This document shows positions 17,253-60,717 of a DNA stretch of 64,000 nucleotides, piece by piece. Each line of letters starts with the position of its first letter. Within the stretch, counting starts at the first letter, position 1. A program made the position numbers and the translations under genes. The DNA is taken from the NCBI GenBank assembly GCA_016870095.1, contig VGCI01000003.1, positions 78,607 through 142,606 of the forward strand, in the 5' to 3' direction. The stretch comes from Alphaproteobacteria bacterium (GTDB lineage: Bacteria > Pseudomonadota > Alphaproteobacteria > Paracaedibacterales > VGCI01). The notes below the pieces were generated by a model. The model ran no database searches and was not told the origin of the DNA. It saw only the letters and a program-made list of their open reading frames with translations.

Positions 17253-20042
17253 TTACACTTCCTCTACGACATCCAGGCAACGTTTACATAAGTCTTCATG
17301 GATGCGTCCGACTTCTTCTAAAACTTTCCAACATCGACTACATTTTTGTCCCTCAGCCAAATTGACTATGACGCCTATATTTGTGACATCTTCGAGAACA
17401 AAAGCACCGGGAGGAGGTTGGGCAATGATTAGTGTTGCTTGAGAGGTAATGGAAAGTTCGGCTAACTCTGGGTCACTCATATCAAGCGATTTAAGAGTTT
17501 CGGCAATCTCAGGGGTTACGTAAATGGCGACATTGGCTTGTAAGCTAGACCCAATTGTTTTCGCGGTCCTTTCAACTTCTAAGGCACCTGTAATGACTCG
17601 TCGCACATCTCGAATAATTTCCCATTGAGAAGCTAAGGCAGCGTTAGTCCAGCTGAAGGGAATATCGGGAAAAACTTGCAAATGGATACTGTCCACATCT
17701 TCTCCATAGCGAGCTTGACGAGCCTCTTCAGTTGTGAAACTTAATACCGGAGCTAACCAATGGGTTAAGCAAGCAAAAATATGGTCCATAACGGTACGTA
17801 CTGCGCGACGTTTTAGGGAAGACGGGGAGTCGCAATAGAGGCAATCTTTGCGTAAATCAAAGTAGAATGCGGATAAGTCAACAGCACAGAAAGTATGTAA
17901 GCTGGCATAAAAGTTCATAAAATCAAAAGTTTCGGCACTCTTTCGCAACGCCAAATCTAATTCAGCCAGACGATGTAAAATCAATTGCTCAAGTTTAGGC
18001 ATATCATTGAAGGGAACTTGTTCTTCTGGGGTGAAGCCATCAAGGGCACCTAACAAATAGCGCAATGTATTGCGTAAGCGGCGGTAAATATCTTCTTGAT
18101 ATTTCAGAATTTCAGTCCCAATGCGCATATCTTCTGTATAATCGACGGATATAACCCATAAACGCAATATATCAGCCCCCATGGTATCAATAATGGTAAT
18201 AGGGGCTAGAGCATTACCTTCCGATTTGGACATTTTAAGTCCTTTTTCATTTAAGGTAAAACCATGCGTTAAGACTTGGCGATAAGGAGCGTTTCCTGTT
18301 GTTCCGCAAGCTTCCATCAACGAGGACATAAACCAACCGCGGTGCTGGTCTGACCCTTCAAGATAAAGGTCGGCTGGCCAAGCTAATTCAGGACGATCTT
18401 TCAAAACAAATTCATGTGTACAGCCGCTATCAAACCATACATCCAGAATATCCATAACTTTGTCGTAATCATTAGGGTTGTATTTGGGAGCTAAAAAGCG
18501 ACTGGCTTCGCTGGTGTACCAAGTATCACCACCCTCTTTAGCAACGGCTTCGACAATGCGGGCATGCACGTCAGCATCCCGTAAAACTTCCCCTGTTTCT
18601 TTGTGAATAAATAACGTCATGGGCGTTCCCCACGCACGTTGGCGCGACAAGTTCCAATCTGGACGGCTTTCGACCATGGAGCGAATACGATTTTTGCCAA
18701 TGGTCGGTAACCAAGTGACTTCATCAATTGCCTTCAAAGATTTCGCACGCAAGTCATTTTTTTCCATGCTGATAAACCATTGTGCCGTTGTGCGAAAAAT
18801 TAGCGGTGCCTTAGATCTCCATGAATGAGGATAACTATGAATGATTTTTGTGGCATGAAGAAGGAGGCCGACTTCTTGAATCGCTTCAATGACTTTGGCA
18901 TTGGCTTTAAAGACAAATGTTCCGGCAAATAAGGGAACATTGGCATAATAGTGACCATCATCCGCAACGGTTCTAGGAATTTCAAGACCATGTTTTTTGC
19001 CAACTTCAAAGTCTTCTAGTCCATGACCTGGTGCTGTATGAACAAGGCCAGTTCCGGCTTCGGTGGTGACATGCTCCGCGTTAAGGAGAGGAACCGGAAA
19101 ATCATACCCCTTTCCTTGTAAAGGATGAGAACAAATTACCCCGGCTAACTCCTTGCCACTAAGAGTTCCAAGTACGTGGTGTGTCTCAACATCTAATTTG
19201 GCGAGAAAGTCGGCAACCAAATCAGTTGCTACAAGGAAAGCCTGGTCATGCTTATCAGACTTAATGACGGAATACTCGATACTTTCTCCATATGCGATGG
19301 CTCGATTTCCGGGGAGGGTCCAAGGTGTCGTGGTCCAAATGACGGCAGCCACATTATTCAAAATAGGCAAGTGCGTTTCCTTGACAGGAAAAGCAACATA
19401 AATAGAGTCTGAGGTGTGATCTTTGTATTCAATTTCTGCTTCAGCCAATGTTGTTTTTTCAACAACGGACCACATAACTGGTTTTTGTCCCCGGTATAAA
19501 CTTCCATTCAGAAGAAAACATCCTAATTGTTCAATAATTCGGGCTTCTGTTTTGAAATTCATGGTGGAGTAGGGATCATCCCAGTCCGCAACGATTCCCA
19601 ACCGTTTGAATTCTTCCCGTTGAATATCAACCCACTTGGCGGCAAAGGTTCGGCATTCGGCTCGGAATTCTAATACATCAACATCATCTTTGTTAAGGCC
19701 TGCATCTCGATAGCTTTCCTCAATTTTCCATTCAATAGGTAAACCATGGCAGTCCCAACCGGGAACTAAAGGAGCGTCATAGCCAAGCATTTGGTATGTT
19801 TTATTGACAACGTCTTTTAAAGTTTCTGTGAGGGCGTGCCCAATATGAATGTGACCATTGGCATAGGGAGGGCCAAAATGAAGAATAAATTTTTTCCGGC
19901 CTTTAGATTGGGAGCGCAAGGTTTTGTATAGGTCAATTTTTTTCCAATAATTCAAAAAATCAACTTCACGTTTTGCCAAATTTGCCTTCATGGCAAAATT
20001 TGTTTTGGGGAGAAAAACTGTATTTTTATAATCGACTTTCAT
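17253..20042 (-). CDS. ileS: Isoleucine--tRNA ligase
   Basis: 929 aa with a HIGH motif (NGHIHIGHAL), a KMSKS motif (LKMSKSEGN) and a C-terminal Cys cluster (CSRCW...CKRC). Confidence 0.97.
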   Translation of the reverse strand: MKVDYKNTVFLPKTNFAMKANLAKREVDFLNYWKKIDLYKTLRSQSKGRKKFILHFGPPYANGHIHIGHALTETLKDVVNKTYQMLGYDAPLVPGWDCHGLPIEWKIEESYRDAGLNKDDVDVLEFRAECRTFAAKWVDIQREEFKRLGIVADWDDPYSTMNFKTEARIIEQLGCFLLNGSLYRGQKPVMWSVVEKTTLAEAEIEYKDHTSDSIYVAFPVKETHLPILNNVAAVIWTTTPWTLPGNRAIAYGESIEYSVIKSDKHDQAFLVATDLVADFLAKLDVETHHVLGTLSGKELAGVICSHPLQGKGYDFPVPLLNAEHVTTEAGTGLVHTAPGHGLEDFEVGKKHGLEIPRTVADDGHYYANVPLFAGTFVFKANAKVIEAIQEVGLLLHATKIIHSYPHSWRSKAPLIFRTTAQWFISMEKNDLRAKSLKAIDEVTWLPTIGKNRIRSMVESRPDWNLSRQRAWGTPMTLFIHKETGEVLRDADVHARIVEAVAKEGGDTWYTSEASRFLAPKYNPNDYDKVMDILDVWFDSGCTHEFVLKDRPELAWPADLYLEGSDQHRGWFMSSLMEACGTTGNAPYRQVLTHGFTLNEKGLKMSKSEGNALAPITIIDTMGADILRLWVISVDYTEDMRIGTEILKYQEDIYRRLRNTLRYLLGALDGFTPEEQVPFNDMPKLEQLILHRLAELDLALRKSAETFDFMNFYASLHTFCAVDLSAFYFDLRKDCLYCDSPSSLKRRAVRTVMDHIFACLTHWLAPVLSFTTEEARQARYGEDVDSIHLQVFPDIPFSWTNAALASQWEIIRDVRRVITGALEVERTAKTIGSSLQANVAIYVTPEIAETLKSLDMSDPELAELSITSQATLIIAQPPPGAFVLEDVTNIGVIVNLAEGQKCSRCWKVLEEVGRIHEDLCKRCLDVVEEV

Positions 20043-24971: not shown

Positions 24972-25883
24972 ATGAAACTCCTTAATTTAAACAAACTGCT
25001 TTCCATAATTTCCCTATCAATTATTTTAATGAACTCAGTTTTAGGCAATACGCCTGAACTCATTCCAGGTCAATTTGTAGATGGGCACCTCAAAAATTAC
25101 TCCGAGGAAGAGCGTCGACTTATTGATGATGAGCTTAACAATATCAGCCAACTTTGTTTTCGGGGTCAAAAACCTTCTGTGAATCAGTTAATTTACGTTG
25201 CGACAGCGGGAGGGCCTGGTGCGAGTAAGTCAACAATTCTGGAAACGTATTTGCAAGAAAACTCTGAGTTTGTTTATGCCGATCCTGATCAAAGAGCATT
25301 GAAATTTATGATTAATACATATCTTCAGTCTCTAACGAATTATCAAATCAGCAGAACACCTTCTTATCGACTTTTACTAAATTCAGCTTATGAAAAGTGG
25401 CGTGCTGGTTCAAATTACATAGCATGCAAGATTCTAAATAATGCATATACGCAAAATTACAATATTGCGCATGGAACAACCTCCACAGCCAAAGAAATAA
25501 GTAGTCTCTACGAGAGATTAAAAGAGAGAAAATATAAAATTATTTTGCTGTTATGCGGGTCAACGGATCAAAATCGAATCAATGCGTTGCGTACACGGGC
25601 AGAAACGCAAGGATTTGTCCAAAGTTCGGATGAGGATACTATTAATAAAGGAAAAGCTTTTTGGGAAAGGCTACCCGTATATTTCCAGTATGCTGATGAA
25701 ATACAAATCTATTGGACTCAAGATTTTAAACAAGGGAATATAAAAGCCGCAACTTTTGATAGAGTAAAAGGTTTAAAGATTCTCGACCAAAAAGCCTTTG
25801 ATAGTTTTGTGAAACAGTATGAGTTAGCGCGTAGCGAAAAAAAGGAATTGGTGCCATTTAAATCGATTGTGCCGATTTTATAG
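24972..25883 (+). CDS. Signal-peptide-bearing P-loop kinase-like protein (zeta-toxin / AAA_33-like)
   Basis: N-terminal Sec-type signal (KLLSIISLSIILMNSVLG). Walker A GGPGASKST is followed by the acidic VYADPDQRALKF, as in zeta-toxin-type kinases. No adjacent antitoxin-sized ORF is present. Confidence 0.5.
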   Translation: MKLLNLNKLLSIISLSIILMNSVLGNTPELIPGQFVDGHLKNYSEEERRLIDDELNNISQLCFRGQKPSVNQLIYVATAGGPGASKSTILETYLQENSEFVYADPDQRALKFMINTYLQSLTNYQISRTPSYRLLLNSAYEKWRAGSNYIACKILNNAYTQNYNIAHGTTSTAKEISSLYERLKERKYKIILLLCGSTDQNRINALRTRAETQGFVQSSDEDTINKGKAFWERLPVYFQYADEIQIYWTQDFKQGNIKAATFDRVKGLKILDQKAFDSFVKQYELARSEKKELVPFKSIVPIL

Positions 25884-27408: not shown

Positions 27409-28650
27409 TTAGTTTTTGGCTAAGACTTTGGGCTGATAAAGATTTGGAAATTTGCTCTTAAGAATATTTTTTGCGGCTTCTCCATCTGCAACCAGAATCT
27501 CTTTAAAGAGTTTTTCTTGGTCCCCAATCGGCATCTGCAAAACCGTTTGGAAGAGCTTGTTTAGATGGTCTAAATATTCCTTGTCAATCCCTTTAACCCA
27601 CATGCCCCCGATAGGCGCTGGAAAAGCACATTGTCGTTCTTTTAGGAGTGGTAACATTTTTTGTCCGCCCATAAGGGAAGGAAGATTTTCACTACTAACA
27701 AAACCACTTTTAGCGGTATGTTTATTGCCATACATGTTACTGCACGTTGTGCATGGCATACTTCCTTCTATTCCCACCATTAATGCGGATCTGTTTTTAT
27801 TAAAATTACTGACCTGTAAGTAAGCATGACCGTGTTGAACTTTTGGAGAAACCGTCTTTGTTGAATTATCATACCGAAATCCTTCGGGAGCAATTTCCTG
27901 ATTAAATTTATCAGGATTACCCACCCCGCCAATAGCAATATTAACTCCCCGATGTTTTCCTGTAATTCCGAGCATCATATTTTTAGGTAAATTTTTCAAT
28001 CCGCCTAATTTTTTTTCTTTTATTTCTAGTTTTCCATTGAGCATTTCAGCACTAAAACCATGGCTTGCTCCAAGTCGTGTCATATCAATTTGCGGAATTT
28101 TCGAAAAATCCCCAGTTAACAAAAGATTATAGAGTGTATTCCCATCTCCAATTTCCATATCAAAAAGAATTCTTTGACCGTGAGATAAAGCGACAGCTAA
28201 CGGATAAGGCCAGGTTTTTAGAGAAGGTATGTTGTTTGCCTGTTCTGTGAATTGTAAAGGCGCATCTGCTAAAATGAGAAATAGCCTTTTTACAAAATTT
28301 TGACGCTCATCTTCTATCATTAATTTTTTGTCGAGACAGGCTTGTGATTTTTGTTGTGCCGGTATAGCCCGTTTGCAAGTGTGAATAGATTTTTCTCGCT
28401 CATTTGAGGGAAACATCGTGTTAAAAAAAACAACAATATCTGCTGTAAATTGTTTTGTAAGGGAAAGGGAATCCTTTTTTTCCATTTCAGGCTTTCCTGT
28501 TCCCCAGGTTCCGGGAGCAATTTTCCAATCTTGTATTGTAATTTTTGGAGTGCAGACGGGTTGGCTAGTCATAATGGATTGGTCATTAATCTTAGCACTT
28601 CCTGTAGAAATTAGGCTTGTAAAAAAGATTATTAAAAGGTTACGTTTCAT
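27409..28650 (-). CDS. Hypothetical exported protein; no family recognised
   Basis: About 413 aa with an N-terminal signal (LLIIFFTSLISTGSA). GGGAAG lies 5 nt upstream of the ATG at 28650; the ORF track starts two codons earlier at a GTG. Convergent with the thiolase gene across a 10-nt gap. Confidence 0.55.
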   Translation of the reverse strand: MKRNLLIIFFTSLISTGSAKINDQSIMTSQPVCTPKITIQDWKIAPGTWGTGKPEMEKKDSLSLTKQFTADIVVFFNTMFPSNEREKSIHTCKRAIPAQQKSQACLDKKLMIEDERQNFVKRLFLILADAPLQFTEQANNIPSLKTWPYPLAVALSHGQRILFDMEIGDGNTLYNLLLTGDFSKIPQIDMTRLGASHGFSAEMLNGKLEIKEKKLGGLKNLPKNMMLGITGKHRGVNIAIGGVGNPDKFNQEIAPEGFRYDNSTKTVSPKVQHGHAYLQVSNFNKNRSALMVGIEGSMPCTTCSNMYGNKHTAKSGFVSSENLPSLMGGQKMLPLLKERQCAFPAPIGGMWVKGIDKEYLDHLNKLFQTVLQMPIGDQEKLFKEILVADGEAAKNILKSKFPNLYQPKVLAKN

Positions 28651-28873
28651 GTTCACTTCCCGAATTTATGTCGGCACAACTATAAAAATATTATGGGCAC
28701 AAAAACTTTAATGAGAAGTGAATATTGGTAATATTCTAAGGATGAGAAAAAATTGTTTAAAGGGTTAAATTCATGATTTTTCCAAAATAATTAAAGAAAA
28801 AACCCATTCACTTGTTGCGCAAGACCTTAAATCCGTCTATAAAAAAGTCAGTGATTTTCCAAGGGGAGTATAG

Positions 28874-45066: not shown

Positions 45067-48000
45067 ATGACTCCATTCGTTCATTTACGTGTTCATACCG
45101 CTTATTCCCTCGCAGAAGGGGCTATTAAGCTGAAAGATTTGGCCAAGCAGTGTCGCGAATATTCTATGCCTGCTGTGGCAATCACGGATACGGCTAATCT
45201 TTTTGGAGCTCTCGAGTTTTCCATGAGTTGCGCTGAAAATGGTATTCAACCTATTATTGGGTGCCAAATCCATTTGCGCCGATCTTCCCCATCTTCCCCC
45301 GGGAATCAAAAACCTATTGAGCCGGATCAACTTGTTTTGATTGCTCAAAATGAGGAGGGATATCGCAATCTTCTTCATTTGGTTAGTGATTCTTATTTAT
45401 CAGCGGCAAGTGGTGAATTACCTCAAATGACTCTTGAAGCTTTAAAAGAGCGAAGTGCGGGGTTAATAACTTTAACAGGGGGGCCAGCCGGTCCTATTGG
45501 TCGTTTGATTGCAGAAGGTCAACGAAGCGCTGCGGAAGAACTTCTTCTCACCTTAAAAGCCATTTTTCCCAATCATCTCTATGTTGAAATTATGCGACAT
45601 GGATTAGCAATTGAAGATCAAATTGAGCCTATACTGGTTGATTTAGCCTATCAACATGATCTTCCTTTGGTAGCGACCAATGAGGTTTTTTTTAAAGACC
45701 CCGATATGTATGAAGCGCACGACGCTCTTTTGTGTATTGCAGAAGGTAGATATTTGAATCAAGATGATCGCCGACGCGTAACGCCTCATCATTTTTTCAA
45801 GACTGCCCAAGAAATGATAGAGATATTTTCAGACTTGCCTGAAGCCATTCACAATACAGTGGTAATTGCAAAGCGCTGTTCCTATATGCCTATCCCGCGT
45901 CATCCTATTTTACCACCCTATCCGACGGAATCGGGGCGTTCTGAAGGTGAGGAGCTCCGCGATATGGCAGAAAAAGGCTTACACGGGCGCTTGGAGCGTC
46001 AAGTCTATGATTTGACAGATTCTGCTGAAACCAAAATCGAGAAGCGTCAAATTTACTTGGATCGCCTAAACTATGAAATCAATGTCATTGAGAAAATGGG
46101 ATTTCCCGGGTACTTCCTTGTCGTTGCAGATTTTATACAATGGGCAAAAAGTCAAGGTATACCTGTTGGTCCTGGTCGTGGGTCGGGTGCGGGCTCTTTG
46201 GTAGCGTGGGCTTTGACAATTACGGATATAGATCCCATTCGATTTGGATTATTGTTTGAGCGTTTCTTGAATCCAGAACGCGTTTCTATGCCTGACTTTG
46301 ATATCGATTTTTGCCAAGAACGTCGCGATGAAGTGATTACTTACGTTCGTCGCAAATATGGCGACGATCGTGTTGCTCACATTATCACTTTTGGAAAGAT
46401 GCAAGCCAAAATGGTTCTGCGAGACGTGGGACGTGTGCTCCAACTCCCCTATGGTCAGATTGACAGAATTTCTAAGCTTGTCCCCAACAATCCAGCCAAT
46501 CCAGTAACGCTAGAGCAAGCCCTGGAAATGGAACCTTTATTGCGAGAAGCTCGTGATACAGATCCCGCAGTTGCAACGATGATGGATATGGGCATGAAGC
46601 TGGAAGGTTTATATCGTCATGCTTCAACCCATGCTGCAGGCGTCGTGATCGGAGATCGTCCCTTAGCTGACTTGGTGCCGCTTTATAAAGATGAAGGATC
46701 TATATTGCCGGCAACTCAATTCAGCATGAAATATGTGGAATTAGCGGGTTTATTAAAATTCGACTTTTTGGGTTTAAAAACATTAACAATTATTGAAAAT
46801 TGTTGTCAGCGTCTGAAGACAAATGGAATTTCGATTGATATTGCTCAAATTCCCCTTGATGATCCTAAGACTTTTGAACTTCTTCAAAAGGTTGAAACAG
46901 TTGGTGTTTTCCAAGTTGAAGGTGCGGGCATGCGGGACGTGCTGCGCAAGCTTCGACCCGATCGCTTTGAAGACTTAATTGCTTTGGTCGCTCTTTATCG
47001 TCCAGGCCCTATGGATGATATCCCCCGATATCTGGCTTGTAAACATGGTGAAGAGAAAGTGACCTATCTTCACCCCCAATTGCAGTCCATACTGGAGCCA
47101 ACATATGGGGTTATGGTTTATCAAGAACAGGTTATGCAAATTGCTCAAGTTTTAGGTGGATATACATTGGGTGCCGCAGATCTATTGCGTCGAGCCATGG
47201 GAAAGAAAATTAAGTCAGAAATGAATGCCCAGCGTGCTCAGTTTGTTGAAGGGGCAATTAAAAATGGTTTGATACCTGATATTGCCAGTCAAATTTTTGA
47301 TCAAATGGCCAAGTTTGCCGGATATGGTTTTAACAAATCCCACTCTGCCCCTTATGCTCTATTGACTTATCAAACCGCCTATTTAAAAGCGAACCATCCT
47401 CTGGAATTTTTTGCAGCATCCATGACATATGATGTGAATAATACCGATAAACTAAATGTATTTCGTCAAGATATGGACCGATTAAAAATTGCTCTACTGC
47501 CCCCAGATATGAACGCTTCAGAAGTTTCGTTTTGTGTTGAAGGCAATGGCATTCGCTATGCATTAGCGGCTATTAAGGGTGTTGGTGAAGCGGGAATGAA
47601 AATAGTTCGACACGATCGTCAACTTCACGGACCTTTTAAAAGTTTGCTAGAATTTGCCCAGCGAATCGGCACGTGTGGAGCCAGTAGCGCGTTAAACAAG
47701 CGTCAATTGGAAAATCTTGTTTCCGCGGGAGCGTTCGATGGGTTAAATGCCAATCGCAAGCAAACCCATGGTGCAATTGAGAGCATGTTGAGACAGGCGG
47801 CACTTTCAGCTCAAGAAAAACAGAGCCAACAACATAGTTTGTTTGGATTTTCGGCATCTCAAAACCATCAAACTCTTTTGCTTCCTCCCATGAATGATTG
47901 GGGATCTCTTGAAAAATTACAGAATGAGTTTGACGCTCTCGGATTTTTCCTCTCCGCTCATCCTTTGGATATTTATGGATCTTCTCTGGCACGTCTCGGG

Positions 48001-48540
48001 GTGACGTCTAGCGAAACTGTAAAGGAAATGGGAGATGGGGCCACAGTAAAGTTGGCAGGAATTGTATTGGTCAAGCAAGAGCGAACTTCCAAAACCGGTC
48101 AAAAATTTGCTTTTGTAAAACTGTCTGATGCCCAAGGGGTTTTTGAAGTTGCCGTATTTTCAGAAGTCTACAGTCGCAGCCGGGATCTTTTAGAGCCAGG
48201 AAAGCCTTTGCTGGTGAGTGCAATTTTAAAGCAAGAATCGGAAGGTCCGGGAGGTGAGAGAAACTTTCGCTTAACAGGCCAGGGCGTGCAACTTTTAGAT
48301 GAAGCGATGCAATCTTTGACAAAAATGATTAGGGTGCGCGTGAATGAAACGGCAAAAGCCGATGATTTACGTCAAATATTTAAAAGTGCTCCTGCCGGTA
48401 ATGCCCGTGTGAGTATTGAAGTGATTTTTACCTCGACGCCGACCATTCAAATATTGTTGCCTGATAGTTACCACATCCATGCAGAAACACGCTCTCAGCT
48501 TTTGGGAGTGCCAGGCATTATAGGGATTGAGGATTTATAA
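45067..48540 (+). CDS. dnaE: DNA polymerase III subunit alpha
   Basis: 1157 aa. N-terminal PHP domain (FVHLRVHTAYSLAEGA), polymerase core (GRGSGAGSLVAWALTITDIDP, PDFDIDF) and a C-terminal OB fold. Confidence 0.97.
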   Translation: MTPFVHLRVHTAYSLAEGAIKLKDLAKQCREYSMPAVAITDTANLFGALEFSMSCAENGIQPIIGCQIHLRRSSPSSPGNQKPIEPDQLVLIAQNEEGYRNLLHLVSDSYLSAASGELPQMTLEALKERSAGLITLTGGPAGPIGRLIAEGQRSAAEELLLTLKAIFPNHLYVEIMRHGLAIEDQIEPILVDLAYQHDLPLVATNEVFFKDPDMYEAHDALLCIAEGRYLNQDDRRRVTPHHFFKTAQEMIEIFSDLPEAIHNTVVIAKRCSYMPIPRHPILPPYPTESGRSEGEELRDMAEKGLHGRLERQVYDLTDSAETKIEKRQIYLDRLNYEINVIEKMGFPGYFLVVADFIQWAKSQGIPVGPGRGSGAGSLVAWALTITDIDPIRFGLLFERFLNPERVSMPDFDIDFCQERRDEVITYVRRKYGDDRVAHIITFGKMQAKMVLRDVGRVLQLPYGQIDRISKLVPNNPANPVTLEQALEMEPLLREARDTDPAVATMMDMGMKLEGLYRHASTHAAGVVIGDRPLADLVPLYKDEGSILPATQFSMKYVELAGLLKFDFLGLKTLTIIENCCQRLKTNGISIDIAQIPLDDPKTFELLQKVETVGVFQVEGAGMRDVLRKLRPDRFEDLIALVALYRPGPMDDIPRYLACKHGEEKVTYLHPQLQSILEPTYGVMVYQEQVMQIAQVLGGYTLGAADLLRRAMGKKIKSEMNAQRAQFVEGAIKNGLIPDIASQIFDQMAKFAGYGFNKSHSAPYALLTYQTAYLKANHPLEFFAASMTYDVNNTDKLNVFRQDMDRLKIALLPPDMNASEVSFCVEGNGIRYALAAIKGVGEAGMKIVRHDRQLHGPFKSLLEFAQRIGTCGASSALNKRQLENLVSAGAFDGLNANRKQTHGAIESMLRQAALSAQEKQSQQHSLFGFSASQNHQTLLLPPMNDWGSLEKLQNEFDALGFFLSAHPLDIYGSSLARLGVTSSETVKEMGDGATVKLAGIVLVKQERTSKTGQKFAFVKLSDAQGVFEVAVFSEVYSRSRDLLEPGKPLLVSAILKQESEGPGGERNFRLTGQGVQLLDEAMQSLTKMIRVRVNETAKADDLRQIFKSAPAGNARVSIEVIFTSTPTIQILLPDSYHIHAETRSQLLGVPGIIGIEDL

Positions 48541-48544
48541 ATAT

Positions 48545-48570
48545 AAAAAACCCCTCTCGAAAGAGAGGGG
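48545..48570 (-). terminator. Rho-independent terminator of the WCA-protein gene
   Basis: Stem CCCCTCTC (48551..48558), loop GAAA, stem GAGAGGGG (48563..48570). On the minus strand it is followed by a T6 run (A-run 48545..48550 on plus). On the plus strand the trailing sequence CTCATTT is only weakly U-rich, so a role in dnaE termination is uncertain. Confidence 0.75.
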
Positions 48571-48597
48571 CTCATTTAATCTATAAAATTTTTATTT

Positions 48598-49827
48598 TTA
48601 TTTCCAATCATCATCATCAGTTTTAGGGGTTTCTTTTGATTCGATCTTTCCTATAATAGCACCCCTCCTTTGAGACAGGGCTTTAGATAATACGCTTTGC
48701 ACTGTATTAGAATTATCGCCTTGATGTGTCTCTTTACTGTCGGGATGAGGCACGGTATTATCTACTTTCTTAAGCACTTTTCCACCTTGAATTTGAGCTA
48801 ACAGGTTCCCACGAGGGGTAGGTTGAGTTAAAGGTTGCGAGGTAGCAGAATTTTTATCACTCGCGGGCGGTGGGGGGGCTGCAGGTATATCAGATGCCGT
48901 TGAGGGGGCATTGTTGGTCATGCTTTTTGCAGGAAGCTGAGTCGTTCTGAGTTTCTTTGCTTGGATCTGATCCAATAATGGATTGGGTGCCCGTGTTTCT
49001 TCCACCGGTGAGACAGGATCGGTGGAATGTTCAGTGGATGAAGAAGCAGGTATTGACTCATTGAGGGCTGTATTAGGAGGATTGTTTGGTGTTCGATGTT
49101 GCCCCAATTTGGGGGTAGAAGCATCACTTCCAAGGGCGGTTGATGAATGACCTGGAGCTGCGCGTACAAACCCTCCGTCTTTACCGGCAGGAGATAATGA
49201 CTTAGAATCTGAAGACGCTTCTACCGCATTAGACAGACCTAATCGCTCCTTTTCTTTGGTAGTTAGCACATTGAGAAGCTGCTTTTCTTTATCACTCAGC
49301 TTCGTTGGGTCGATACCCGCAGGCACCAAATTGGATGTTGGGACAACACTTCGTGAAGTGGGTGTCATTTCACAATTTTTCATCTGTTTCGCAACTAAAT
49401 CTGCTTTATCCGTCAAAGTTTTGCTTTTTTTCTGGTAGTCATTTAAATACTTTTTCCCACGGGAGTCCGTTGCTTTTTCAAACCGTGTAATATTCTCTTG
49501 GTTATCTTTAATTGCAGTCTCATAACCCATTTTTTCGTCTTCCAATATCTTTTGTAAATTTGCTTTGTTTGTTGGGTTTAAATTCTTACAAAATGCAAGA
49601 AGAGCATCTTTAATTTTTGTGTTATCGCAGTTTGCGGCACAATCATTCACATTTTTTTGAAAATCTTTAGAAGATCGATTTGCCAGCACTGTTTTTCCAC
49701 ATTTTAGCTTGCAAGTTGCTACATTCCACGCAGCTTCTGTTTTTTGTGTGCTTAAACATGTAAATGTTAAAGTTCCTAAAACTAAGCTTAAAATCGAAAT
49801 TGTATTGCGCATAGTTACTTTTTCCAT
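48598..49827 (-). CDS. Exported eukaryote-like actin nucleation-promoting-factor candidate: signal peptide, twin-CX3C domain, poly-Pro, 2x WH2, C helix and acidic/Trp tail
   Basis: ORF 48598..49845; in-frame Met at residues 1, 4, 7 and 12. I prefer Met7 (49827), which has AGGA 8 nt upstream. Residue numbers are those of the 415-aa track ORF. Signal: ISILSLVLGTLTFTCLSTQKTEA. WH2-1: NPLLDQIQAKKLRTT (aa 288-302). PAAPPPPA: aa 321-328. WH2-2: GNLLAQIQGGKVLKKVD (aa 346-362). C-like helix: VQSVLSKALSQRRGAII. Terminus: TDDDDWK. Confidence 0.7.
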   Translation of the reverse strand: MEKVTMRNTISILSLVLGTLTFTCLSTQKTEAAWNVATCKLKCGKTVLANRSSKDFQKNVNDCAANCDNTKIKDALLAFCKNLNPTNKANLQKILEDEKMGYETAIKDNQENITRFEKATDSRGKKYLNDYQKKSKTLTDKADLVAKQMKNCEMTPTSRSVVPTSNLVPAGIDPTKLSDKEKQLLNVLTTKEKERLGLSNAVEASSDSKSLSPAGKDGGFVRAAPGHSSTALGSDASTPKLGQHRTPNNPPNTALNESIPASSSTEHSTDPVSPVEETRAPNPLLDQIQAKKLRTTQLPAKSMTNNAPSTASDIPAAPPPPASDKNSATSQPLTQPTPRGNLLAQIQGGKVLKKVDNTVPHPDSKETHQGDNSNTVQSVLSKALSQRRGAIIGKIESKETPKTDDDDWK

Positions 49828-50012
49828 TGTTTTCATCCTTATCATCTATTATGTCGCCTATAAATTATTATGAGCTAAGAGAATTAAAAAAATCTTAACT
49901 ATTTTAAATCTCTATTTTTTGGATATTTCATAAGGTTCTGAAAGGTATTCAATTCGCAAATAAACTTTTTCAAGTTTAGGAGCTGTGCCTGTTTGGAGAG
50001 CAACTTATTTAT

Positions 50013-50038
50013 AAAAAAAACCCCTCCGAAGGGAGGGG
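50013..50038 (-). terminator. Rho-independent terminator of the second WH2-protein gene
   Basis: Stem CCCCTCC (50021..50027), loop GAAG, stem GGAGGGG (50032..50038), followed on the minus strand by a T8 run (50013..50020). Near-identical design to the 48545..48570 terminator. Confidence 0.75.
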
Positions 50039-50063
50039 TATCTTACATAATTTAAATCTTAGT

Positions 50064-51005
50064 TTAATTACCGTTAGCGGCTGCGGCAGCAGCGGCTTCT
50101 CTTTTTGCTTTCATGGCGAGCGCAGCTTTCTGTATTTCGTTGATACTTGACCCTTGATCGGTGTTCGTTGCTGGTTTAGGTGTACCATTTGCAGATGGAG
50201 TGGGTAGAGAACCCAATCTGCGAGTAGGTGAAGTAGTATCGGGCGCTCCTACAGGATTTGCTGCAACTGGAGAAGTTGTTGCCTTAACATCTGTCTCATT
50301 TTTTTTAAGTTCTCTACCTTTTCGAATGTCAGCTAACAAATCTGCAGGTTGAGTTTTGTTTGCTGGAGAAGGTGCTGTTGCAGGTACTGCTGCTTTTGCA
50401 GAAGCTGGAGGTGGTGGCGGTGGCGGAGCAGGCGGCACATTAGATGGTGCAGTATTCACATCCGCTGGTGACGGAGCTGGTTCAGGCCTAAACATTGGTG
50501 TTGGGACTGGAGGTACAGCTGGAGCTCCGGCCGGAGCTGTTATTGCGGGAGTGGCAACATCCAATGCAACAGGGCATTTCTTCATTTGATCCGCAACGGC
50601 TTTAATCTTAGTGTCTAATAATTTATCTTTACTCGTATATTCTTTTGTGAGTTTTTTCCCTCTATAGTCTGATGCATTTTTAAATTGATCTATTTTACTT
50701 TGATTTGCTTTTTTTTCTTCTTCATAACCGAGTTTTTGTTTACTTAAATCATCATTTAATTTTTTCTTATCTACCAACTTATCGCAGTTAGCGAGAAGAA
50801 CATCCTTAATGATCGCATTATCACAATTTCTAGCACACTCATTCAGAGTTTTCGTCTTGTTTCCTACCACGTACTTATTACATCTTACTTTGCACTCTGC
50901 AGGGCTCCAAGCCACTGTATTCTGAGTGCCTAGACTCATAATTGTTAAAGTTCCCATAATTAAGCTAAGTGTGGAAACTCTGTTTTTGGAAATTAATTTT
51001 TGCAT
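50064..51005 (-). CDS. Exported WH2 / poly-proline protein, paralog of 48598..49827 lacking the acidic/Trp tail
   Basis: Track ORF 50064..51044. The ATG at 51005 (MQKLISKNRVSTLSLIMGTL...) has AAAGGA upstream. It shares the twin-CX3C domain with its neighbour. PPAPPPPPPP at aa 204-213 and WH2 ADLLADIRKGRELKKNE at aa 233-249, numbered on the 326-aa ORF. It ends ...EIQKAALAMKAKREAAAAAAANGN. Confidence 0.7.
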   Translation of the reverse strand: MQKLISKNRVSTLSLIMGTLTIMSLGTQNTVAWSPAECKVRCNKYVVGNKTKTLNECARNCDNAIIKDVLLANCDKLVDKKKLNDDLSKQKLGYEEEKKANQSKIDQFKNASDYRGKKLTKEYTSKDKLLDTKIKAVADQMKKCPVALDVATPAITAPAGAPAVPPVPTPMFRPEPAPSPADVNTAPSNVPPAPPPPPPPASAKAAVPATAPSPANKTQPADLLADIRKGRELKKNETDVKATTSPVAANPVGAPDTTSPTRRLGSLPTPSANGTPKPATNTDQGSSINEIQKAALAMKAKREAAAAAAANGN

Positions 51006-51221
51006 TTTTTTATCCTTTAAATTATATAAACAATACAAATTCATTGTAATTATTAAATAATTAAAAAAATATTAAAAATATATATTAAAAAAATTTTTGA
51101 AATTAACAATTATTAGAATGTCTATAAATTAATATTATTTTAAGATTTTTCATGGAACATAGAATTATAGGTTAGATTTACTAAAAGTTTACAAACTCTC
51201 AAAATAGTTTGGCAAAATAAA

Positions 51222-52754
51222 ATGCAAAAAATTCTGAACCAGCTCGAAGAAAAACGCAAAGCTTGTTATTTAGGGGGCGGCCAGGAGCGTATTGATCGTC
51301 AACATGGTAAGGGAAAATTGACCGCACGCGAACGTTTAGATATTCTTTTAGATGAGGGATCGTTTGAAGAGTGGGGGCTTTTTGTTGAGCATCGATCTCA
51401 AGATTTTGGGTTGGATAAACTAACCATTCCGGGAGACGGAGTGGTGACTGGTTATGGCACTATTAATGGCAGGCTGGTGTTCGTATTTTCCCAAGACTTT
51501 ACCGTTTTTGGTGGCTCATTAGGCGAAGCCCACGCCGAAAAAATTGCCAAAATTATGGACAAGGCCATACAAGTGGGAGCTCCCCTTATTGGGTTAAACG
51601 ATTCTGGAGGGGCGCGCATTCAAGAAGGTGTCGATTCTCTTGCAGGTTATGCAGAAGTTTTTCAACGAAATGTTTTGGCCTCTGGCGTGATCCCCCAACT
51701 ATCTTTAATTATGGGGCCGTGCGCAGGGGGTGCTGTCTATTCACCCGCGATGACAGATTTTATTTTTATGGTAAAACAGACAGCCTACATGTTTGTGACA
51801 GGTCCCGATGTTGTCAAAACTGTAACTAACGAGACCGTTAGCGCAGAAGATTTAGGAGGTGCTAAAGTTCATACGACCCAATCCGGCGTTGCCGATTTGG
51901 CGCCTCCAAATGATATAGATGCTCTTATGCAAGCGCGTCGATTGATCGATTTTTTGCCGCTTTCAAATCGGGAATCTCCGCCCCTTCGTAAAACGTCAGA
52001 TGCGCCAAATCGTCTCGATCCGGCACTGGATACCTTGATTCCCCCTAATCCAAATCTTCCCTATGACATGAGGGAGCTCATCCATAGCGTGCTTGATGAT
52101 GGAGATTTCTTTGAAATGCAGCCTGAATTTGCGCCCAATATTCTCATTGGATTTGGTCGCATGGATGGTCGATCGGTAGGTATTGTTGCTAATCAGCCTA
52201 TGGTTTTAGCAGGCTGTTTGGATATTAATGCATCTCGAAAGGCGGCTCGATTCGTTCGGTTTTGCGATTGTTTTAACATTCCCTTGCTAACCTTCGTCGA
52301 TGTGCCGGGATTCTTACCCGGTATTGAACAGGAGCAGGGCGGTATCATTAAACACGGGGCAAAATTATTATTTGCTTTTGCTGAAGCAACGGTTCCTAAA
52401 GTCACACTTATTACACGGAAGGCTTACGGGGGGGCTTATGATGTTATGAGCTCAAAGCATATTCGCGCAGATGTCAATTTCGCGTGGCCAACGTCAGAAA
52501 TTGCCGTTATGGGCCCTAAGGGTGCTGTAGAGATTATTTTTCGTGGGGATTTAAGTTCGCCTGAAAGCATGGCGTGCCGCGAGGAAGAATACCGAGATAA
52601 GTTTGCAAATCCCTTGATTGCAGCCCATCGTGGATTTATTGATGATATTATTCAACCACGAGAAACACGATTGCGAATGTGCCGTTCCTTAGACATGTTG
52701 GCGAATAAAACACTTGTCAATCCGTCAAAGAAGCACGACAATATCCCATTATGA
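51222..52754 (+). CDS. pccB: Propionyl-CoA carboxylase beta chain (carboxyltransferase)
   Basis: 510 aa. N-terminus [33 protein letters not shown] is typical of PccB and the methylmalonyl-CoA carboxyltransferase 12S subunit. Partnered with pccA downstream, and mce is in the same window. Confidence 0.88.
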
Positions 52755-52894: not shown

Positions 52895-53227
52895 ATGGAT
52901 AAAGAAGCACAAGTCAGAGAACGTGTTCGTGAATTACGGGTATATTATACCAATCTGGTCGTTTATGCAGGAGTAACAGCCGGATGTATTCTGGTTTGGT
53001 TGCTCAATGGTGCTGGTGCCTTTTGGCCTATTTGGCCCATTATGGCTTTTGGAATTGCTGCTGCTTTACAAGGCGCGCGTCTTGGACAATTAAAAGCTCT
53101 AGAAGAATGGTTCCCTTTTTTAAGTCCAGAGTGGGAAGAAAATCAGGTTAAGACACTCATTAAGGGACGTAAAGAAGATAAAAAATCAAAGCCCACTGGA
53201 AAATTAACTGACGATATGAACGATTAA
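52895..53227 (+). CDS. Small 2TM-domain membrane protein
   Basis: 110 aa with two adjacent hydrophobic helices (LVVYAGVTAGCILVWLL / FWPIWPIMAFGIAAAL) and a K-rich tail. Located between pccB and pccA. Confidence 0.55.
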   Translation: MDKEAQVRERVRELRVYYTNLVVYAGVTAGCILVWLLNGAGAFWPIWPIMAFGIAAALQGARLGQLKALEEWFPFLSPEWEENQVKTLIKGRKEDKKSKPTGKLTDDMND

Positions 53228-58602: not shown

Positions 58603-59765
58603 AAAAATACAAGGTTTTCTTGTCTGCAGGTGAACCATCAGGCGATTTTTTAGGGAGTCATCTTATGAGTTCCCTGAAATGGCAGTTCAATAACAATATT
58701 GAATTTGTTGGCCTGGGAGGTTCCTTAATGGAGGAAGAAGGAATGTCTTCTCTATTCCCCATTGATGAATTATCCATCATGGGCCTTGCGGAAATTATTC
58801 CTCATATTTGGCGGATTCGTAAACGCATCTTCCAAACAGTTGATGCGATTGAGAAAATCAATCCTGATATTATCGTAACGATTGACTCTCCGGGGTTTAA
58901 TTTTCGTGTTGGAAAAATACTCAAGAAGAGAGGTAAAGCCATCCCACTTGTACACTATGTTGCCCCTTCTGTTTGGGCATGGCGTCCAGGTAGAGCAAAA
59001 TCAATTGCAAAATTTCTCAATCATTTACTAGTTTTGTTTCCTTTTGAACCTCGCTATTTCCTAAAAGAAGGGTTGCCGACCCAATTTGTGGGGCATCCCG
59101 TGGTTGAGCTGGGATTAATAAATACGGCGCACTCTTCATTTCGACAGCGACATAATATTCCCCTATCCGCTTCAATTTTGACTGTTCTTCCCGGAAGTCG
59201 CCGAGGGGAAATTTCTCGACTTTTACCCATCTTTCAAAAAACGATTTTAAAGCTTCAACAAAATGACCCTAATTTACATGTTGTAATTCCAACTTTGCCT
59301 CACTTAGTGAATCAAATTCACCAGCAATTGACTGTGCCAGCAACAATAGTCACGACACAATTGGAAAAGATTTCGGCTTTACAGGAAAGTCGAGGTGCAT
59401 TAGCTGCGAGTGGTACAGTTTCCTTAGAATTAGGGGCAGCAGGTTTACCAAGTGTTATTGCTTATAAAATAAATCCATTTACGCATTTTGTGATAAATTT
59501 CATGATAAAAGTAAAGTATGCGTGTCTACTTAACATACTGATGAATAAAGAAATTGTTCCGGAACGATTGCAGCAAAAATGCACATCTGAAAATTTAGCA
59601 TTAGCTGTCAAAGAAATTTTATATAACGACAAAGTTCGTGAATCAATGAAAATAGAAATGAAAAGAGCCTTGAGTATGCTTAAAGCTCCTTCAAAAGATT
59701 TGTCCCCAAGTCAGTGTGCCGCTCAATATATAGCCCAAGTCTTAAACATTAATGGTCCTAATTAA
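58599..59765 (+). CDS. lpxB: Lipid-A-disaccharide synthase
   Basis: 388 aa with GEPSGDFLGSHLM N-terminus, IDSPGFNFRV and ASGTVSLELG motifs. Confidence 0.93.
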   Translation: MKKYKVFLSAGEPSGDFLGSHLMSSLKWQFNNNIEFVGLGGSLMEEEGMSSLFPIDELSIMGLAEIIPHIWRIRKRIFQTVDAIEKINPDIIVTIDSPGFNFRVGKILKKRGKAIPLVHYVAPSVWAWRPGRAKSIAKFLNHLLVLFPFEPRYFLKEGLPTQFVGHPVVELGLINTAHSSFRQRHNIPLSASILTVLPGSRRGEISRLLPIFQKTILKLQQNDPNLHVVIPTLPHLVNQIHQQLTVPATIVTTQLEKISALQESRGALAASGTVSLELGAAGLPSVIAYKINPFTHFVINFMIKVKYACLLNILMNKEIVPERLQQKCTSENLALAVKEILYNDKVRESMKIEMKRALSMLKAPSKDLSPSQCAAQYIAQVLNINGPN

Positions 59766-60717
59766 AGATGCCGACTCCAGCTTTGCAGAGGAGCTGAACA
59801 TAGCCAACAAATCCACGATTCATGCGTCCTTGAATGCACCCCCCTCTCGTGAGATGACCTTCTAGAACTTGATCAAATATCATCTGAATATAAGAAAAAT
59901 TTTGGTTTTTGTTGTAAAGATTTATGGCTAACGACCACGCACGAGACCAGACTTCACGAGCTGCAGGGCAGAGGCTTATTTCTGAATCCATTCGCGCAAA
60001 ATGATTATTGAGATAGGTCAAAATTGTGTCAATATCAACAGGCCTTTCTAAATATTTATAGGCAGCAAAAAATTTATCGTTGTTTAACACAAATTCACAC
60101 ATTTGTTGACCCACTTGAGCTAAAGTCAAATTTGGATTGTCAATACTATACAAGTTTCCAATGTCTAAAAGATGGCGGATGTTGTTGCCACCTCCAAATA
60201 CATAATCATCTAAAATATGAACGTCAGAATCGGCGTAAATTTGACTTAAATAATTGAATATTCGCATAAAATTTTCAAGAATAGGTCTTTGTTTTCCCGC
60301 TGCATATTCCCGTGATAACTTATTGGTTCGCAAGATATCTACGCTATGTCCCGGACTATCTTCAAAATTATTGTAACGTACCTGACGATGTTGAATTAAG
60401 GATACATGATCGTGAGTGCTTGTTGCAGAATGGGCCATATCCCCTCTTCTGTTTTCTTCAACCAAAAGTTTGCGAATGTAGTCTAGCGAGGCTTTCTCTT
60501 GTGGGGCAATCACTTGAGGTGGGGGGGCCGTTCTTCGAGTATCATAAAAACCTTCCCGATTGATTTCTGCTTTCAGGCCATCTCTATACTCCTTTAAGGT
60601 TAATCCTAACGAGGCGGTAAGAGCGGTATCTAAGTCATTATCTTGCTCTTGCGCGAAACTAATGGAGATAGTTCCCACAAGAATAGAAATAAAAAAAGCC
60701 CGAATAAAATTTTCCAC
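59758..60717 (-). CDS. Hypothetical exported protein; no family recognised
   Basis: 319-aa ORF with a GTG start and an N-terminal signal (FFISILVGTISISFA/QE). Its 3' end overlaps the convergent lpxB by 8 nt. Confidence 0.5.
   Translation of the reverse strand: MENFIRAFFISILVGTISISFAQEQDNDLDTALTASLGLTLKEYRDGLKAEINREGFYDTRRTAPPPQVIAPQEKASLDYIRKLLVEENRRGDMAHSATSTHDHVSLIQHRQVRYNNFEDSPGHSVDILRTNKLSREYAAGKQRPILENFMRIFNYLSQIYADSDVHILDDYVFGGGNNIRHLLDIGNLYSIDNPNLTLAQVGQQMCEFVLNNDKFFAAYKYLERPVDIDTILTYLNNHFARMDSEISLCPAAREVWSRAWSLAINLYNKNQNFSYIQMIFDQVLEGHLTRGGCIQGRMNRGFVGYVQLLCKAGVGIFN

Follow-up and report, generated by a model that had tools for sequence, protein, structure and literature searches.

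Bacterial copies of the WASP-type VCA module, in which a WH2 motif (V), a connector helix (C) and an acidic patch (A) are joined, are classic tools in the study of actin assembly and markers of an intracellular lifestyle. Does the 64-kb stretch of alphaproteobacterial DNA analyzed here (contig VGCI01000003.1; the whole stretch is "the window" below) contain a gene for such a protein? The candidate lies at 48598..49845 on the minus strand. We favor, with slightly better than even confidence, the reading that this gene encodes an exported mimic of the WASP-type proline-V-C-A (P-V-C-A) tail, a putative Arp2/3 activator aimed at a protist host. The bacterium would presumably live in or on a protist or be eaten by one. 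Described examples of bacterial VCA mimics are few (RickA, Wbm0076, Burkholderia thailandensis BimA, and ActA), and this gene adds a candidate family from uncultured environmental Alphaproteobacteria. New in it is the joining of a VCA to a predicted Sec-exported, disulfide-stabilized domain that has no structural relative in PDB, in a fast-evolving gene at a conserved locus. In the following, P-numbers denote proteins matched in the searches and L-numbers denote related loci or contigs.

Gene layout

Translation of the open reading frame (ORF) 48598..49845 (-) gives the 415-aa protein quoted in an earlier note on this DNA, and the five motifs that this note had assigned to particular residues and nucleotides are all found where it placed them. 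The protein is identical to NCBI MBM3632743.1, annotated as [quoted passage not shown]. The start codon is probably the ATG at 49827 (MEKVT..., with AAGGA 7-8 nt upstream), which would shorten the protein to 409 aa and leave the signal peptide untouched. The features of the gene are listed below; AlphaFold2 is abbreviated as AF2, its per-residue confidence score as pLDDT, and the ratio of non-synonymous to synonymous rates as dN/dS.

48598..49845 (-): coding sequence, 415 aa (ORF translation; purifying selection)
49732..49845 (-): Sec-type signal peptide, aa 1-38 (hydropathy and family alignment)
49366..49731 (-): N-terminal cysteine/helical domain, aa 39-160 (AF2 model, invariant Cys columns, dN/dS)
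48886..49365 (-): disordered, fast-evolving Pro/Ser/Thr-rich linker, aa 161-320 (AF2 pLDDT <50, dN/dS 0.39, composition)
48940..48984 (-): WH2-like motif 1 NPLLDQIQAKKLRTT, aa 288-302 (degenerate; insertion specific to the lineage)
48862..48885 (-): proline tract PAAPPPPA, aa 321-328 (sequence; lengthened to PPPPPPPP in orthologs)
48757..48816 (-): canonical WH2 (V) motif PRGNLLAQIQGGKVLKKVDN, aa 344-363 (Pfam PF02205, PDB profile matches)
48760..48810 (-): WH2 as delimited in the earlier note, GNLLAQIQGGKVLKKVD, aa 346-362 (motif position check)
48649..48702 (-): C (connector) amphipathic helix VQSVLSKALSQRRGAIIG, aa 382-399, with conserved Arg-Arg-x-Ala (AF2, colinear alignments, hhalign)
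48601..48621 (-): acidic patch with penultimate Trp, TDDDDWK, aa 409-415 (ortholog conservation)
48598..48600 (-): stop codon, directly after TDDDDWK
48548..48573 (-): strong Rho-independent terminator 3' of the gene

A WASP-type tail at the C-terminus

As read from the sequence, the order and spacing of the tail are canonical: a proline tract, a WH2, an amphipathic C helix with conserved arginines, and an acidic patch with a penultimate Trp. The Pfam WH2 profile (PF02205; gathering cut-off 23.1 bits) matches aa 344-363 with 27.0 bits (E 3.3e-6), and the isolated fragment with 29.2 bits, which bears out the description of aa 346-362 as a near-canonical WH2. An amphipathic C helix with conserved Arg follows this WH2, and the protein ends in an acidic C-terminus with a conserved Trp (DDDDWK, aa 410-415), as in the VCA regions of the WASP family. 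When the C-terminal 135 aa were shuffled 200,000 times, the WH2 pattern arose once, the C pattern eight times, and the acidic-Trp end six times, and the three never arose together.

Comparisons with eukaryotic proteins point in the same direction. In a pairwise BLASTP alignment, the last 95 aa of the window protein are 43% identical over 72 aa to P0021 (E 3e-11), covering the WH2, the linker and the C helix, and P0021 itself has the WH1+PBD+WH2 architecture of a WASP according to Pfam. A profile of the P-V-C-A region built from four orthologs matches the WH2 of Spire (2e-7) and of N-WASP (1e-4) in PDB, and the alignment with the N-WASP chain 2vcp_D runs colinearly past the WH2 into the C helix (..ALMEVMQKRSKAI vs. 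..ALSKALSQRRGAI). Thus, the helix that had been called connector-like is colinear with the C regions of both N-WASP and P0021. The profile comparison with WASP-type VCA regions proposed earlier gave colinear matches to eukaryotic WASP-family proteins from the proline tract to the Trp; for the CA part alone, a profile of ten family members matched one of eleven eukaryotic nucleation-promoting factor (NPF) sequences with an hhalign probability of 97% (P 1e-10), a result that is not fully independent, since the eukaryotic CA set came from a CA-containing profile.

The structure prediction and the conservation pattern agree with this picture. In the AF2 model, the C-terminal ~250 aa are disordered except for short helices at 289-296, 348-353, and 379-402, and disorder with short helices at the WH2 and C positions is as expected for a VCA region. 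Orthologs of only 51-52% identity, with a neighboring DnaE that is 94% identical, retain KTDDDDWK, RRGA, and the core of the WH2, and KTDDDDWK is invariant across orthologs of 51-89% identity.

Signal peptide and N-terminal domain

The basic n-region at the N-terminus leads into a hydrophobic core of 16 residues (ISILSLVLGTLTFTCL) and on to an A-x-A-type site (TEA/AW), and this arrangement is conserved almost motif for motif in the family alignment (..LS.ALG.L..TSL.TG.AEA/SW). Sec-dependent export of the window protein is thus very likely by these signals. The compact domain that follows has six conserved cysteines, four in twin CxxxC motifs (C45/C49 and C69/C73) together with C86 and C158. 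Its AF2 model (aa 36-165, 20 homologs) has a pLDDT of 91.9 and a predicted template modeling score of 0.78 and consists of a small helical head, which carries the twin CxxxC, on a long antiparallel helical hairpin. A Foldseek search of this model against PDB found no significant relative (best E 0.39, generic helical hairpins only). Given the conserved cysteine pairs, the domain is expected to fold oxidatively outside the cytoplasm. The signal peptide and cysteine domain described in the earlier note are therefore real, and both are conserved across the family.

Three other interpretations of the protein were dropped. A lipoprotein was rejected because a lipobox is missing and the orthologs have Ser in place of Cys30. 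An autotransporter was rejected because no such Pfam domain was found, the AF2 model is without beta structure, and the C-terminal end is the VCA. The sub-threshold Pfam matches to DUF1151 and MYG1 within the N-domain were regarded as chance.

The wider family

The full-length family profile was compared exhaustively, with HMMER, against 1.84 billion representative proteins and gave 69 matches. The family proper comprises ~20 clusters at 50% identity that share the N-domain (P0005-P0017, P0019, P0020, P0035, P0037, and P0061). The signal peptide and paired cysteines are invariant throughout. In many members the protein likewise closes with a polyproline tract, a WH2, a C helix, and an acidic stretch whose W or F lies at the C-terminus or close to it, as in P0007 (..ETENEWR), P0012 (..GDFEENNFD), P0013 (..EITDDGW), P0035 (..LDFEQDWGEK..), P0037 (..ETDEDWNTH), and the L096 gene (..KDAEDDEWK). 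The acidic end with W or F is retained at ~25% identity in P0007, P0013, P0035, P0037, and L096. P0009 keeps the polyproline tract and WH2 and is missing the acidic-Trp end.

Most of the matches from outside the family align only at profile positions ~270-369, which cover the proline tract and everything up to the terminal Trp; E values for eukaryotic WASP-family proteins are as low as 5e-8. Of these proteins without the N-domain, we read 26 sequences, and Pfam was run on 13. P0021, P0029, and P0051 have the genuine WASP architecture (WH1 + PBD + WH2), P0046 and P0066 are IMD+WH2 proteins, and P0042 is a WASH-like CCDC53 protein with four WH2 motifs. P0031 is unusual among the profile matches, being eukaryote-like with a signal-peptide-like segment, a Cys-rich region, a very long proline region, and a VCA.

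The family was seen solely in metagenomes and unclassified metagenome-assembled genomes (MAGs), and members deposited at NCBI are annotated only as "hypothetical protein". A literature search found no paper that describes the family or its accessions. A word-indexed search with an 18-sequence alignment gave 7 matches only, and a GTDB genome scan with the family alignment found no relative, using a pattern specific to close orthologs that distant members could escape.

The N-domain also occurs with another type of partner. In P0061 and L095 (966..3011, +), the family signal peptide and N-domain continue into a module of ~480 aa that has the motif HGDLH..N...IDTG. This module has a weak, sub-threshold EcKL kinase-like Pfam match (E 0.032) and no relative in PDB by sequence search, so the label "kinase" is tentative. 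Fusion to a different module suggests that the N-domain may be a modular carrier for varied cargo; the cargo types seen so far are WASP-type VCA arms, VCA-less WH2 arms, and the weakly kinase-like enzyme. A possibly ATP-dependent module would fit, if weakly, a carrier of cargo for the host cytosol. Extending this idea, the signal peptide and twin-CxxxC hairpin would form a new Sec-dependent carrier or anchor module that takes several eukaryote-targeting cargoes from the periplasm to a protist host, and the VCA would derive from a captured WASP gene of the host; we consider this extension possible but doubtful.

Some of the matches are unrelated bacterial proteins, namely, P0028 (L091 6001..7353), P0030 (L092 6001..6897), and P0068, which have signal or transmembrane (TM) N-termini together with WH2-C-acidic modules. 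P0028 is on the NCBI MAG GCA_964607885.1, adjoining Fic and fragmented accA/accD-like genes. P0030, on an alphaproteobacterial contig, has a TM-polyproline-VCA layout like that of Wolbachia Wbm0076. P0068 looks bacterial, judging by its sequence alone, and its acidic end is without Trp. Taken as independent bacterial VCA proteins, these three imply that such mimicry is wider than the earlier note assumed, and bacterial VCA mimics seem, from these sequences, to be more widespread than described. The list of known mimics given in that note was itself incomplete, with Wolbachia Wbm0076 missing (PMC9980815), and neither the neighboring paralog, nor the rest of the family, nor the conserved site between pccB and dnaE had been noticed.

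Tandem paralog

Directly upstream of the VCA gene is a second member of the family with the following features.

50064..51044 (-): tandem paralog, 326 aa (N-domain profile)
50298..50339 (-): paralog WH2 DLLADIRKGRELKK (Pfam WH2 15-20 bits, under the 23.1 cut-off)
50020..50039 (-): Rho-independent terminator of the paralog

Both window genes match the N-domain profile (E 4e-57 and 5e-59) and have the invariant C..C / C..CDN cysteines. The paralog has a signal peptide and N-domain as in the VCA protein, a longer proline tract (PPAPPPPPPPA), a WH2, and a C-like helix; it is without the acidic-Trp tail and its C-terminus is poly-Ala. Since each gene has its own terminator, the two are separate transcription units. 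The L001 counterpart of the paralog is further diverged and has no clear WH2. With a polyproline tract and WH2 and no acidic-Trp tail, the paralog would bind actin or profilin without activating Arp2/3, and its domain content suggests that it may assist or antagonize the VCA protein independently of Arp2/3.

Conserved locus and evolutionary rates

The VCA gene and its paralog lie between pccB (51222..52754) and dnaE (45067..48540), and positional orthologs of the family occupy the same pccB-dnaE site in L001, L085, L088, and L096. DnaE of the window is 94% identical to that of L001 and 81% to that of L085, whereas the VCA protein is only 52% and ~25% identical, respectively. Between the window and L001, dN (Nei-Gojobori) is 0.29 for the VCA gene vs. 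0.031 for dnaE, which is about ten times faster, and dN/dS is 0.21 overall, lowest in the N-domain (0.05) and higher in the VCA (0.26) and the linker (0.39). In comparison with an 89% identical fragment in L090, the ratio exceeds 1 in the VCA, where the numbers of changes (11.5 non-synonymous vs. 1.5 synonymous) are too low for a usable estimate. By these rates, the arm of the VCA protein is evolving fast while its motifs stay. The GC content of the gene is like that of its neighbors, and the conserved locus, the selection and the matching GC together indicate an old resident gene and not a recent insertion. The identical gene is present on at least five independent contigs (JGI, Logan, and NCBI) of up to 244 kb.

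As for the organism, the best DnaE match in the GTDB species representatives, at 63% identity, comes from an unclassified alphaproteobacterium, and genera of the Rhodospirillales type reach 57%. A DnaE-anchored GTDB scan found a family member beside dnaE in 0 of 80 loci.

Alternative explanations

Several observations weigh against an exported Arp2/3 activator, in addition to the partial dependence of the CA profile match. First, motif 1 (aa 288-302) is doubtful as a WH2 on sequence grounds: the Pfam WH2 search gave no match even at E<=10, the motif is missing from the alignment of the 52%-identical orthologs P0003 and P0004, and its helix-to-LRTT spacing is one residue below that of a canonical WH2; AF2 models a short helix (289-296) there. 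The "WH2-WH2" module claimed earlier is thus overstated, as only the second WH2 is solid. Second, the acidic patch with its Trp, which had also been noticed, is present and invariant in orthologs but is short, with four Asp amid a Lys-rich stretch, and less acidic than typical. Third, a search of PDB with the CA-only profile returned designed coiled coils only and no WASP CA chain. Fourth, complex I, the methylerythritol phosphate pathway, and the synthesis of fatty acids, lipid A, and ubiquinone are all retained, and the housekeeping content of the window argues against strong genome reduction. The source of the contig is the water column of Lake Tanganyika. Finally, as to an outer-membrane route, the protein has neither an autotransporter barrel nor a lipobox, and no secretion-system gene was found in the 64-kb window.

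The alternative that survives best, which we regard as rather unlikely, is an actin-binding effector that acts independently of Arp2/3. Its polyproline tract and WH2 would nucleate, elongate, or sequester actin in the manner of Vibrio VopL/VopF, Chlamydia TARP, or Burkholderia pseudomallei BimA, and the likeness to C and A would be functionless. It is true that the WH2 is the sole element above a curated threshold and that the acidic patch is minimal; against this, orthologs with strongly diverged surrounding sequence all keep RRGA and DDDDW unchanged. The paralog and P0009, which keep the polyproline tract and WH2 without the acidic-Trp end, fit this alternative, but an acidic C-terminus with W or F recurs in distant members. 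Similarly, the CA-only search of PDB was empty of WASP chains, yet the CA-only profile matches eukaryotic CA. Moreover, a single WH2 is a poor stand-alone nucleator, as judged from nucleators with tandem WH2 motifs.

It is quite improbable that the protein is a structural component of the envelope or periplasm, with a helical stalk and a Pro/Ser/Thr-rich spacer like the TonB- or TolA-type linkers, that never meets actin and resembles a VCA by chance or low complexity. Such a role would suit the Sec signal, the disulfide cysteines, the absence of a recognizable device for outer-membrane translocation, the housekeeping neighborhood, and an organism that may have no host. It is at odds with the significant WH2, the colinear V-C match to WASP (E 3e-11), the composite motif that was never reproduced by shuffling (0/200,000), and the conservation of the motifs inside an otherwise fast-evolving arm. 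Moreover, within the 69 matches, the non-family proteins whose architecture was checked are eukaryotic WASP-type proteins or carry other WH2 or VCA elements.

An assembly artifact, mis-binned eukaryotic (host) DNA, or a decaying transferred WASP gene, for which the closeness of the VCA to protist-like WASP sequences might speak, is effectively refuted by the pccB-gene-dnaE synteny across lineages with DnaE 81-94% identical and by selection (dN/dS as low as 0.05 in the N-domain). The recurrence of the gene on independent contigs and its bacterial signal peptide, Shine-Dalgarno sequence, own intrinsic terminator, and neighbor-like GC also speak against it.

Proposed mechanism and significance

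If the protein is an exported Arp2/3 activator, as we favor, its N-domain would anchor it at the surface of the cell or carry it there or into the surroundings, and the long helical hairpin may oligomerize it. Clustering of NPFs is known to potentiate Arp2/3 activation. In the host cytosol, the proline tract would recruit profilin-actin, the WH2 would deliver an actin monomer, and the C helix and Asp4-Trp would bind and activate the host Arp2/3 complex. Branched actin would then be nucleated at the bacterium and could serve uptake, motility, or phagosome remodeling. Such a protein would have precedents in the Sec-dependent surface NPFs BimA and ActA, in Wolbachia Wbm0076, and in a periplasmic Holospora protein, all compared below.

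An active protein would flag an unrecognized interaction between bacteria and protists in lakes and provide a minimal, naturally unregulated Arp2/3 activator for biochemistry. It would also raise the question of how a periplasmic protein reaches the host cytosol, which the fusion of the N-domain to another type of cargo makes testable. Should the idea of a carrier module be true, the family would represent a new route of effector export or display.

Other genes in the window

The rest of the window contains housekeeping genes, including those for BamA, Skp, RseP, Dxr, CdsA, Coq7, MutL, LspA, IleRS, PlsX, FabH, NuoLMN, RNase J, PCC, and Lpx proteins. The following ORFs stand apart from these.

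27409..28656 (-): 415-aa ORF with a Pfam Ntox11 ("novel toxin 11") match, 38 bits vs. a cut-off of 25
52895..53227 (+): small gene with two TM segments (PF13239-type) between pccB and pccA, beside the VCA locus; the arrangement is kept in L088, L096, and L085
8407..9177 (+), 24972..25883 (+), and 59758..60717 (-): orphan ORFs of 256-319 aa with no significant Pfam match; 24972..25883 (+) has a weak AAA_33 match only

By its Pfam match, the Ntox11 ORF may encode a polymorphic toxin or an effector, in surroundings that are otherwise housekeeping. In L085, a gene for a patatin-like phospholipase (18462..19586, +) was found a few kb from the positional ortholog P0013; genes of this type are common in intracellular bacteria.

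Comparison with known systems

Compared with WASP and N-WASP, which are class I NPFs, the window protein has the same succession of a polyproline tract, a WH2, ~20 aa, a C helix (L..AL..RR.AI), ~17 aa, and a C-terminal acidic patch with Trp. It differs in the absence of WH1, PBD/CRIB, and SHD (Pfam finds WH2 only, whereas it finds WH1 and PBD in the true WASP matches), and is therefore not a eukaryotic WASP/WAVE member; in place of these domains it has a Sec signal and the cysteine/helical domain. Its acidic region has just four Asp, and its gene is located in a bacterial housekeeping locus.

BimA of B. thailandensis and ActA of Listeria are Sec-exported, surface-anchored proteins that present WH2/CA-like elements to the host cytosol. 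For BimA, this presentation from the bacterial surface has been described (PMC9569871). However, BimA, a trimeric autotransporter, is anchored by a beta-barrel at its C-terminus, and no YadA-like barrel was found in the window protein by Pfam or AF2. ActA has a C-terminal membrane anchor, whereas the VCA of the window protein is at a free C-terminus. In contrast to both, the sole folded part of the window protein is N-terminal and all-helical.

Among alphaproteobacterial proteins, RickA of Rickettsia has Pro-rich, WH2, and CA elements and activates host Arp2/3 at the bacterial surface (PMC10002696, citing Gouin 2004). The window protein shares these elements and the alphaproteobacterial origin. 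A Sec signal is absent from RickA, whose N-terminal region is a ~95-aa repeat that encloses a G-actin-binding domain (PMC10002696); by this description, the predicted cleavable signal peptide and twin-CxxxC domain set the window protein apart. Wolbachia Wbm0076 is a mimic of the WAS(p) family with a TM-polyproline-VCA layout, and its toxicity in yeast needs the conserved Arg of its V and C motifs as well as the Trp of its A motif (PMC9980815). Both proteins have an N-terminal hydrophobic segment followed by a polyproline tract, V, C, and A. As described, Wbm0076 is targeted by a membrane-spanning helix directly before its polyproline-VCA, whereas the window protein has, after its hydrophobic segment, a conserved A-x-A site and then a Cys domain of 120 aa that is not described for Wbm0076.

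A parallel for the location of the protein may be found in Holospora obtusa, in which an 89-kDa periplasmic protein with actin-binding motifs is exposed outside the bacterium during infection of its protist host (PMC9866348). The likeness, drawn from the description alone, is that of a periplasmic protein in an alphaproteobacterial symbiont of a protist; the 89-kDa protein is not described as a VCA mimic. Taken together, these comparisons support, in silico, a protein that would work like the output module of a class I NPF in an architecture that is neither that of RickA nor those of Wbm0076 and BimA.

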